DNA of 24,000 bases, taken from assembly GCA_965279445.1 (NCBI GenBank), contig OZ257241.1, forward strand, positions 611,888 through 635,887, read 5' to 3'. The stretch is from Roseivirga sp. Lineage in GTDB: Bacteria > Bacteroidota > Bacteroidia > Cytophagales > Cyclobacteriaceae. Each line of letters opens with the position of its first letter. Within the stretch, counting starts at the first letter, position 1. A program made the position numbers and the translations under genes. This document shows positions 9,211 to 10,518 of this stretch, piece after piece. The notes below the pieces were generated by a model. The model was not told the DNA's origin, ran no database searches, and worked only from the letters and a program-made list of their open reading frames with translations.

Positions 9211-10518
9211 TCAGCTGTAAAACGTATCGTAGTTGCTCTGGTCAGTCGCCTGTTGATGCTGATCTGCATTGCTTGGATCAGGCTGAGGTATATATTGACC
9301 CGGGTGCTCCTGCACAGGAGTTTCCGGCTGACTTACTGCTTGTTGCACCATATCCTGCTGAGGCTGGGTAGTGGTCGTTTCTGCCACCACATATTGTTCT
9401 TGTGGCTCCGGGGCGTTTTGTACTACCGCTTGCTGTGGCTGCTGCTCTATGGTCTGATCGGGTGCTGTCACAGAGGTATTCTCGGGTTCTGCTACCGGGG
9501 CCGCTACGGGGGCTTGTGTCTGTGCTACTGATGGTGGGCTGGTAATAGCGTGTAGTGCCTGCCAAAGCGTGGGTTCGTCAAAACACACAGCGCCACCACT
9601 TTGCGAGGGTTGGGGGTTATACCGGTCTATATCCCCGATGCAGATCCAGGGTTTGTTCTTTTCGCTGGCAGCAACGGCCCATCGGGACTGATCCCGTGTG
9701 TGGTCCCATTTGTAGCCGGTAAAGCCCAGCGATTCAAAGTTGATTTCCTGAATTGGCACCACATTGGTCTGGTCGTTTTGATCGTTGCTGTTCACATTGT
9801 TGGCCAGGGTGGTTACATCCAGATTGGTATTGAGCTGTGGCCCTACCAGCTCCGACCAGAAATTACCATGCCACTCACTGCTTTGCGCTATCAGCATAAA
9901 GGGTATCCCGGCTTTGGAGGTAAAGCGTAGTGTTGAGGGCTTAGTAGCAAGCTTCGCAGACTGGTGATAGTAGAGTTGTGACAGAGGTTCTTCCTGCCTT
10001 ACATTGGTAGGTAGTTTAGAGTTGTGAACCAGCACCTGTGGGTTTTGCTGCATCAGCATTTGCCTTGCAATAGCATTGGCGGCACCATAGCCGGCCAATG
10101 AGATGCAGAGAAAGCTCTGGCCATACTTTTGAGCAGCCTCGGGTAGTGTACAATCGCCTATATGCGGGTAGCCGGCTACTGAGTGCACGAGCAGGGAGGC
10201 CGTGTCTTCCGTTTTGTTGAAAATCAATATCCCTTTAGAGAGGCCCCGGCTGGTGTCGTTGTTGCTGCCGTAGGTAAGCTCATTGTTGAAAATCAGGTAT
10301 CCCAGATCTTGATCCTTGCTCGTGAAGGCTGAATTCAGCGTGTTATAGAGTGCCCCTTGTGGTTGATTGAGCTTATTAGCTGATAGTTTCAGAGCAGTAG
10401 CATTGGCATCGAAATAGAAATAGTCGTTGCCTTCATTATCGGTGCTGCCTGTACCTGCGGGTGTTTTATAAATAAACCACCAATCTACGCTTTCGTTATA
10501 CTCATTTTTCGTGTTCAT
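9211..10518 (-). CDS. DNase II-fold (PLD-superfamily) protein with degenerate HxK motif(s) and a Q/P/T-rich C-terminal tail
   Basis: It aligns by eye along the human DNase II sequence. VDWWFIYKTP matches VDWFVVYKLP. RGLSKGILIFN...LLVHSVAGYP...YGQSFLCISL matches RGHTKGVLLLD...WLVHSVPNFP...YGQTLLCVSF. DHTRDQSRWAV...PWICIGDIDR...GGAVCF...LWQAL matches [21 protein letters not shown]...GGTLCAQLPALWKAF. There is no signal peptide, and the last ~110 aa are low complexity. Confidence 0.8.
   Translation of the reverse strand: MNTKNEYNESVDWWFIYKTPAGTGSTDNEGNDYFYFDANATALKLSANKLNQPQGALYNTLNSAFTSKDQDLGYLIFNNELTYGSNNDTSRGLSKGILIFNKTEDTASLLVHSVAGYPHIGDCTLPEAAQKYGQSFLCISLAGYGAANAIARQMLMQQNPQVLVHNSKLPTNVRQEEPLSQLYYHQSAKLATKPSTLRFTSKAGIPFMLIAQSSEWHGNFWSELVGPQLNTNLDVTTLANNVNSNDQNDQTNVVPIQEINFESLGFTGYKWDHTRDQSRWAVAASEKNKPWICIGDIDRYNPQPSQSGGAVCFDEPTLWQALHAITSPPSVAQTQAPVAAPVAEPENTSVTAPDQTIEQQPQQAVVQNAPEPQEQYVVAETTTTQPQQDMVQQAVSQPETPVQEHPGQYIPQPDPSNADQHQQATDQSNYDTFYS

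Follow-up and report, generated by a model that had tools for sequence, protein, structure and literature searches.

A DNase II-like pseudoenzyme encoded in an R-body gene cluster of Roseivirga sp. is probably retained in a non-catalytic role

R-bodies are acid-triggered, spring-like protein ribbons whose existence has been recognized for over 70 years, and a survey records reb genes in 471 or more taxa (PMC13430693). The gene analyzed here lies in an R-body (reb) cluster of Roseivirga sp. (NCBI GenBank assembly GCA_965279445.1), within a 24,000-nucleotide stretch of contig OZ257241.1 (positions 611,888 to 635,887 of the forward strand); the whole of this stretch is called the window, and coordinates refer to it unless another locus is named. 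The gene encodes a protein with the DNase II fold and a degenerate active site. Our preferred reading, to which we assign a probability of about 0.6, is that it is a catalytically dead orthologue of a DNase II that forms a conserved accessory gene of reb clusters, and that it has been retained as a non-catalytic component. The comparisons further suggest that R-bodies have in DNase II a companion that had gone unnoticed. The parts of the gene referred to in the argument are the following.

9211 to 10518, minus strand: the whole open reading frame of the DNase II-family pseudo-nuclease, 435 amino acids (aa) from an ATG start, with the stop codon at 9211-9213 included
9544 to 10518, minus strand: the DNase II domain (PF03265), residues 1-325, from Pfam and a confident fold model
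10231 to 10245, minus strand: the degenerate first HxK motif GLSKG, residues 92-96, with the nucleophilic His replaced by Leu93 and Lys95 kept
9679 to 9693, minus strand: the degenerate second HxK motif DQSRW, residues 276-280, with His replaced by Gln277 and Lys by Arg279
9214 to 9543, minus strand: an acidic, disordered Q/P/T/A/V-rich tail of 110 aa, residues 326-435, from composition and the model

The protein matches the DNase II profile PF03265 with an E-value of 5.7e-70 (236.5 bits against a cut-off of 23), residues 4-325 aligning to profile positions 3-319 and covering 317 of the 326 positions. Its sole solved relative is the DNase II of Burkholderia thailandensis (PDB ID: 5I3E and 5UNB), found by phmmer with an E-value of 5.9e-52 at 30% identity. 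AlphaFold2, run with 20 homologues, gave a model that is confident across residues 1-330, and a Foldseek search of the PDB returned three chains of 5i3e/5unb (E 8e-28 to 1e-26, template modelling (TM) score 0.77-0.79 on the target) and, besides these, no match below E 0.02. The protein had no match in NCBIfam or PHROGs; the isoelectric point (pI) of its domain is 5.2. A DNase II fold over the first ~325 residues had been proposed in a sequence-only reading of the window, and both the profile match and the structural match bear this out. By homology and fold, the protein should be counted as a member of the DNase II family.

The registration of the two HxK motifs was established by four methods: phmmer against the crystal sequence, MAFFT with 19, 7 and 4 homologues, hmmalign of 175 relatives and, in a second alignment, of 85 genome-derived copies, and BLASTP against the copy on a syntenic contig (L165, described below). 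In all four, RGLSKG pairs with GH[CTS]KG, in agreement with the His-to-Leu93 change at motif 1 that the sequence-only reading had called, and DQSRW pairs with DH[AS]KW. That reading had left motif 2 between two placements. The one at DQSRW stands: the BLASTP alignment to L165 is gapless over 309 residues and needs no insertion to place the motif. The other, DHTR with His273 kept, falls, since every alignment pairs DHTR with P/H-Y/E-T-K instead; the column of His273 holds E, Y or S in active enzymes. In the hmmalign alignment of the 175 relatives, His is present at motif 1 in 170 of 173 and at motif 2 in 162 of 166. Both pairs (HKHK) are present in 83 of the 85 open reading frames aligned from the window and the genome loci, the exceptions being the window protein and the copy in locus L004, plus one fragment, and in 77 of 80 metagenome-derived copies.

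When the active site is mapped onto B. thailandensis numbering, with residue roles taken from PMC5449587, the extent of the damage becomes apparent. The covalent nucleophile H100 corresponds to L93 and the water-activating H279 to Q277, while K281 has become R279 and K102 is kept as K95. In the B. thailandensis enzyme a W239-W282-R298 triad positions motif 2 (PMC5449587); here W239 is replaced by L238, and the equivalents of W282 and R298 are kept as W280 and R299, as is Asp276. R305 is replaced by Q306 and the K304 equivalent is also lost, as is the Glu of the ETW motif; of the cavity lysines, K123 has become G116 and K243 has become N241, and the K20 equivalent is kept. Across 33 columns conserved at 90% or more, the window protein departs from consensus at 9 (median of 1 among 156 relatives), and across 78 such columns defined on 81 bacterial copies it departs at 20, against 3 for the L165 copy. 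About 18 further family-conserved residues are changed in the window lineage only. With both catalytic histidines and the second lysine gone, the covalent hydrolysis of phosphodiesters that the family carries out with two histidines is a reaction that this protein, judged on its sequence, cannot run; the loss of catalytic machinery goes further than had first been supposed. Since the features that define the enzyme class fail here, the name DNase II-like pseudoenzyme fits.

It could be argued that the site has been rebuilt rather than lost, with His273 or the invariant His112 joining Lys95, Arg279 and Asp276 in a hydrolytic center for DNA or another phosphoester, as the sequence-only reading had allowed in speaking of changed chemistry. 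The reading frame has been maintained, Lys95, Asp276, Trp280 and Arg299 are kept, and the His at 273 is new. However, the nucleophile and the general-acid histidine are both missing together with W239, R305 and the Glu of ETW, and His273 lies four positions before Gln277, where active enzymes carry E, Y or S. We know of no enzyme of the phospholipase D (PLD) superfamily that works without the HxK histidines. We found no positive evidence for changed chemistry and consider it very improbable.

The evolutionary state of the gene is best read against L165, a short 5.7-kb Logan contig from an unassembled run that carries the only close homologue of the window's AAA+ ATPase (P0181, 41% identity). 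Its gene order is a partial RebB gene (E 1e-47), a Q-rich protein (39% identity to the window counterpart), the AAA+ protein, an 88-aa protein, a 480-aa protein (28% identity to a 487-aa protein of the window) and a DNase II. This last is cut at residue 309 by the contig end, is 55% identical to the window protein with zero gaps, and is intact (GHCKG, NDE, VESWRR, KDHSKW, NRMTSQEKRGGG). The two proteins are sisters in 178 of 200 bootstraps. As the syntenic orthologue is intact and sister in the tree, the window copy is best described as a recently inactivated orthologue; on this tree and gene order, inactivation is evidently private to the window lineage and recent, following the split from the L165 orthologue.

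The association with R-bodies recurs elsewhere. A RebB hidden Markov model (HMM) built from the window paralogues was scanned over 80 genome loci with a DNase II gene, and large RebB arrays lie directly downstream of DNase II in four of them, namely a Rhodospirillales metagenome-assembled genome (MAG; L032), an alphaproteobacterial MAG (L037), a Kordiimonas MAG (L039) and Kordiimonas marina (L040); no RebB was seen in the flanks of the other scanned loci. The closest metagenomic relatives of that subclade, two marine contigs (L085 and L086), have the same arrangement. In these six loci DNase II sits between cluster-specific genes that are conserved in all or most of them: one side is taken by an A/P/Q-rich protein, and the other holds a 117-aa gene, the RebB array, a 110/134-aa RebB relative and an extracytoplasmic function (ECF) sigma factor. 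All six enzymes are HKHK and form a subclade distinct from that of the window and L165; in 198 of 200 bootstraps the alphaproteobacterial reb-linked enzymes fall outside the window/L165 clade. It follows that reb clusters acquired DNase II on at least two occasions.

The seven reb-cluster enzymes in L165 and these six loci share with the window protein the family, the lack of a signal peptide and a RebB-rich cluster. They differ in that all seven keep GH[CT]KG and DH[AS]KW, so the His-to-Leu change, which the sequence-only reading had suggested looking for in homologues from other reb loci, is not found in any of them; the six complete copies also lack the tail. The alphaproteobacterial type further differs from the window in its subclade and in lying upstream of the RebB array with the ECF sigma factor. 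L165 shares the operon order of the window, whereas L039 shares adjacent GH25 and membrane-protein genes: at 6716-8453 on its minus strand, a lipoprotein GH25 (38% identical to the GH25 muramidase of the window) and a 336-aa membrane protein adjoin DNase II. The latter has no sequence similarity to the 310-aa membrane protein of the window, and neither do the Q-rich 224-aa protein of the window and the A/P/Q-rich 205-aa protein of L039 resemble each other in sequence; in both pairs the positions alone correspond. No DNase II relatives were found on viral contigs.

These loci bear on whether the gene is simply an ordinary housekeeping or scavenging DNase II that happens to lie beside reb genes. 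Most bacterial DNase II genes are indeed not reb-linked. The closest complete homologues, from Motiliproteus and other gammaproteobacteria, are intact and lie beside a PF04185 phosphoesterase gene rather than reb genes; a PF04185 gene is near DNase II in 31 of the 80 genome loci (L001-L003, L007-L030 and others), and one 851-aa protein (P0031) fuses PF04185 to DNase II. This suggests a scavenging pair for DNA and phosphate, in which 3'-phosphate ends would be dephosphorylated. Against a chance neighbor, the gene order is kept in L165, DNase II genes of an independent subclade lie inside six reb clusters, the intergenic spacing is operon-like, and no PF04185 gene occurs in any reb-linked DNase II locus. 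A stand-alone enzyme unlinked to reb loci elsewhere is thus not what was found: the tie to the R-body locus, proposed from the window, extends by synteny to L165 and to six further reb clusters, seven other loci in all, and we regard a fortuitous arrangement as scarcely credible.

Two other bacterial proteins with degenerate motifs, P0039 (L004, 10001-11008) and P0092, were grouped with the window protein in one tree, but the grouping was not reproduced with Kimura distances and is probably long-branch attraction. Both have lost the two HxK histidines (the motifs read VSN/PVR and RSH/WVN) and the ETW tryptophan, losses that they share with the window protein along with the absence of a signal peptide. 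They differ in their substitutions and in a basic pI of 9.5-9.7, against 5.2 for the window domain, and P0039 is flanked by an aldolase gene and an ECF sigma factor, in surroundings that contain no reb genes.

An inactivated gene may of course be a dying one, and the alternative that weighs most directly on our reading is that the protein became functionless once its active site was lost and is drifting toward a pseudogene, its tail being read-through or junk. The rate of change is what such decay would give. In relative-rate tests with six outgroups, 43-56 substitutions are unique to the window protein and 11-15 to L165 (p 3e-4 to 2e-8), a lineage evolving 3.5-5 times faster than its orthologue; conserved catalytic columns have changed as often as ordinary ones, with 20 of the 78 conserved columns off consensus, the tail is low-complexity and disordered, and the protein is a singleton, its next best match being 42% identical among 5.8 billion proteins and 1.84 billion cluster representatives. 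Decay sits poorly, however, with other features. All 435 codons are open, and in neutral simulations with 50 amino-acid changes the 309-codon frame of the domain stayed open in only 47 of 1000 runs (4.7%), before indels or the additional 126 codons are considered. There are no gaps to the orthologue across 309 residues, and 58 of the 78 conserved columns (74%) are retained, against 48% identity elsewhere. Between the window and L165 genes the nonsynonymous divergence (dN) is 0.37-0.39 and the synonymous divergence (dS) is saturated at 1.6-3.0, giving a pairwise dN/dS of ~0.13-0.23, and a stop-free extension of 110 codons would arise by chance with a probability of (61/64)^110, or ~0.005. We consider a decaying relic unlikely, although it deserves to be kept in mind. 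Support for the view that catalytic constraint was lost while selection for a folded product continued is moderate, not conclusive.

Several points weigh against a retained, non-catalytic component, and they are gathered here. The open-frame argument reaches only about p = 0.05 and ignores indels. The window protein and every other window protein that was looked up (five) are singletons, which means that selection in this lineage is not directly measurable. Of the three cavity lysines to which DNA binding by the B. thailandensis enzyme is ascribed, the window protein has lost two, and the idea of a DNA clamp is the weaker for it. Linkage to reb genes is seen in ~8 loci from 2-3 independent lineages, and most bacterial DNase II genes lie outside such clusters. 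The tail has no detectable homologue, and the L165 orthologue ends with its contig at residue 309, so that the tail may be either ancestral or new.

The tail itself, a disordered Q/P-rich extension of about 110 residues in the sequence-only reading, is upheld by composition (Q23, P16, T12, A12, V11 and E8, with a pI of 4.05) and by the AlphaFold2 model, in which the predicted local distance difference test (pLDDT) is below 50 for residues 331-418 before a weak C-terminal helix. Its DNA shows no meaningful tandem repeat, and the canonical family members examined lack a tail. At the other end, the N-terminus (MNTKNEYNESVDWWF) is hydrophilic and the domain begins at residue 3-4, so that by inspection of the sequence there is no signal peptide, as had been noted; this is nevertheless the norm for bacterial DNase II and no special feature, since the B. 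thailandensis enzyme has no secretion signal (PMC5449587) and the other homologues aligned likewise lack a signal peptide. The B. thailandensis protein and the window protein thus share family, fold, a bacterial origin, a presumably cytoplasmic location and the absence of a secretion signal, with domains of ~350 and ~325 aa, respectively. They differ in that the former is active at pH 4-5 and stand-alone, whereas the latter is without H100, H279, K281, W239, R305, K123 and K243 and has the 110-aa disordered tail and the R-body operon setting to itself.

The window gene belongs to a long cluster in which all genes from 20510 down to 7493 are on the minus strand. The order at the start of the cluster is an AraC regulator, a RebB-like 91-aa protein, proteins of 110 and 339 aa, a RebB-collagen fusion, seven RebB genes and a 78-aa protein; these are followed by the Q-rich 224-aa protein, the 633-aa AAA+ ATPase, the 82-aa and 487-aa proteins, the DNase II-like gene, a GH25 muramidase and the 310-aa membrane protein. 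Starting at the AAA+ gene, successive genes are separated by 1, 17, 24, 12 and -4 bp. The features are listed individually.

19409 to 20510, minus strand: the head of the cluster, a RebB-like 91-aa protein (19409-19684) and an AraC-family regulator (19674-20510)
19008 to 19340, minus strand: a 110-aa distant RebB relative, 40-46% identical to alphaproteobacterial counterparts
17407 to 17958, minus strand: a RebB domain fused to collagen-like Gly-X-Y repeats (PF01391) and a T/Q/G-rich tail, directly upstream of the seven tandem RebB genes
15247 to 17397, minus strand: the R-body structural genes, seven RebB (PF11747) paralogues in tandem
14197 to 14871, minus strand: a 224-aa Q/A/T-rich protein, the first gene of the tight string, with its 39% identical counterpart in L165
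12274 to 14175, minus strand: a 633-aa AAA+ ATPase with a winged-helix domain (WHD, PF22977) and an AAA domain, counterpart of P0181 in L165
12024 to 12272, minus strand: an 82-aa protein with a positional and weak sequence counterpart in L165
10543 to 12006, minus strand: a 487-aa protein of unknown function, ending 24 bp upstream of the DNase II-like gene, with its 28% identical counterpart in L165
8422 to 9198, minus strand: a GH25 muramidase with an N-terminal transmembrane helix and a match to phage endolysin PHROGs, 12 bp downstream of the DNase II-like gene
7493 to 8425, minus strand: a 310-aa multi-pass membrane protein with a Lys/Arg-rich loop, whose gene closes the string and shares 4 bp with the GH25 gene
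7499 to 7484: a terminator-like hairpin after the last gene

The 110-aa protein has no Pfam match; its counterpart is the last Reb-like gene of the alphaproteobacterial clusters, directly before the ECF sigma factor (L032 17345-17794, L037 16397-16969, L039 16418-16822, L040 16462-16995 and L085 8939-9382). In one RebB paralogue (16872-17273, minus strand, listed as 133 aa) the domain begins at an internal Met (MAYPTSVN...), and the real start is probably near 17141. Low-complexity segments rich in Q, T, A and P occur in several operon proteins (14197-14871, 17407-17958 and 9214-9543, all on the minus strand); among these segments, including the alphaproteobacterial A/P/Q-rich 205-aa protein, no mutual sequence homology was detected. 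On the opposite strand, two tandem DUF2461 genes (20911-22313, plus strand; the first matching PF09365, the second alike by eye only) and a DUF1573/OS_HP2-like secreted protein (22406-22828) mark the boundary of the reb cluster. At the lower coordinates of the window, a pentapeptide-repeat protein (1366-2634, plus strand) and a DUF2806 protein (3865-4872, minus strand) have no apparent link to the DNase II-like gene.

At the end of the string, the GH25 and 310-aa membrane-protein genes (7493-9198) look like a lysis cassette closing the reb operon. Distant relatives of the AAA+ protein (including P0186 and P0189) lie in loci of extracellular contractile injection systems (eCIS) and Photorhabdus virulence cassettes (PVC), beside Pvc16_N, sheath and tube genes. 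The WHD PF22977 and AAA domains together with these relatives mark it as Pvc15/Afp15-like and as an ATPase of the presumptive cargo-loading type, the resemblance being remote (29% across the AAA domain, in addition to the Pfam match of the WHD). Members of the Pvc15 family load effectors into PVC tubes (PMC11495950). The window and PVC/eCIS payload loci (PMC11495950) are alike in locus logic, with a delivery structure, a Pvc15-like ATPase, diverse downstream genes and a disordered region on the candidate cargo; they differ in that the delivery structure is a contractile tail in one and an R-body in the other, and in that the PVC signal is N-terminal and the tail of the window protein C-terminal. 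The 487-aa protein could be a cargo candidate itself. It has no homologue among the 5.8 billion proteins searched, its L165 positional counterpart being the only one, and long helices are predicted in its C-terminal half; a single-sequence AlphaFold2 model has a pLDDT of 39.7, which is too low to use. NCBIfam and PHROGs yielded nothing for the unknown neighbor proteins of the operon.

This setting makes it worth asking whether the dead fold could itself be a payload, loaded into or co-released with the R-body and harming a predator by binding, either through sequestration of DNA or RNA or by blocking host DNase II or PLD3/4-type pathways. The gene lies two downstream of the Pvc15-like ATPase, whose type loads cargo (PMC11495950), and directly upstream of the lysis-type GH25 gene. 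According to work cited in PMC5449587, human DNase II H295 mutants still bind DNA, and Trichinella secretes many DNase II-like proteins without HKD: in the Trichinella spiralis family of 125 genes only plancitoxin-1 has it (PMC4148230). That family is a precedent for DNase II-fold proteins that lack HxK, are retained and are secreted toward a host; its members are eukaryotic, secreted and massively expanded, whereas the window protein is bacterial and the product of one gene within an R-body operon. Such a payload is at odds with the absence of a PVC-type N-terminal disordered loading signal (~50 aa), the domain starting at residue 4, and with the loss of the basic cavity residues K123, K243, R305 and K304. 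We regard it as quite improbable. The sequence-only reading had named the protein a candidate payload or toxin; for the intact relatives such a role is plausible, and a nuclease-toxin role is unlikely for the window copy.

For the preferred reading, in which the window gene is an inactivated orthologue kept as a non-catalytic component, the properties of the intact enzyme and of R-bodies suggest how the two could have come together. The B. thailandensis enzyme digests DNA at pH 4-5 only, with no activity at pH 6-9 (PMC5449587). Type 51 R-bodies unroll below pH 6.5 (PMC3583457), and in the accepted model (PMC3583457, PMC8322103 and PMC13430693) R-body extension in the acidified phagolysosome lyses the bacterium and frees its contents, including an unidentified toxin. 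The ancestral enzyme could thus have been a pH-gated nuclease stored in the cytoplasm and silent in its producer, for which no immunity protein would be needed in reb clusters. Acidification in the phagolysosome, the cue for R-body extension and cell rupture, would also switch the nuclease on, and it might act either as co-released cargo or as a nucleoid-clearing helper of a release or lysis module alongside GH25 and the membrane protein; the Pvc15-like ATPase next door would be compatible with cargo handling. In the window genome catalysis would then have been lost, leaving a binding or adaptor subunit, possibly acting via the disordered tail, or a DNA binder that does not cut.

A broader version of this idea can be put forward only tentatively, and we think it on balance unlikely: DNase II proteins would be a native class of R-body cargo, acid-gated, handled by a Pvc15-like ATPase in the locus type of the window and candidates for the killer factor, and in the window copy association with the R-body would have been selected independently of nuclease activity, the protein serving as an adaptor, a scaffold or a binding-type effector.

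In the open-access literature, no paper with both 'R-bodies' and 'deoxyribonuclease' was found, and none of the open-access papers matching 'R-body', 'RebB' and 'DNase II' connects R-bodies with DNase II; in the portions of two reb surveys reached by a term search there is no DNase or nuclease passage. The recurrent linkage of DNase II and reb genes is a more interesting by-product of this analysis than the gene itself. The R-body clusters that contain DNase II have at least two unrelated architectures, and their enzymes come from two DNase II subclades; the conditions under which DNase II is active (pH 4-5, no metal) match the R-body trigger. The window gene, for its part, is a clear bacterial pseudoenzyme of the PLD superfamily whose inactivation can be dated to after the split from an intact syntenic orthologue; as a natural catalytic-null orthologue, it would let catalytic and structural roles be separated, and cultivable organisms with intact copies exist, such as Kordiimonas marina. 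Should DNase II proteins prove to be a class of R-body cargo, they would provide a concrete candidate for the never-identified R-body killer factor.

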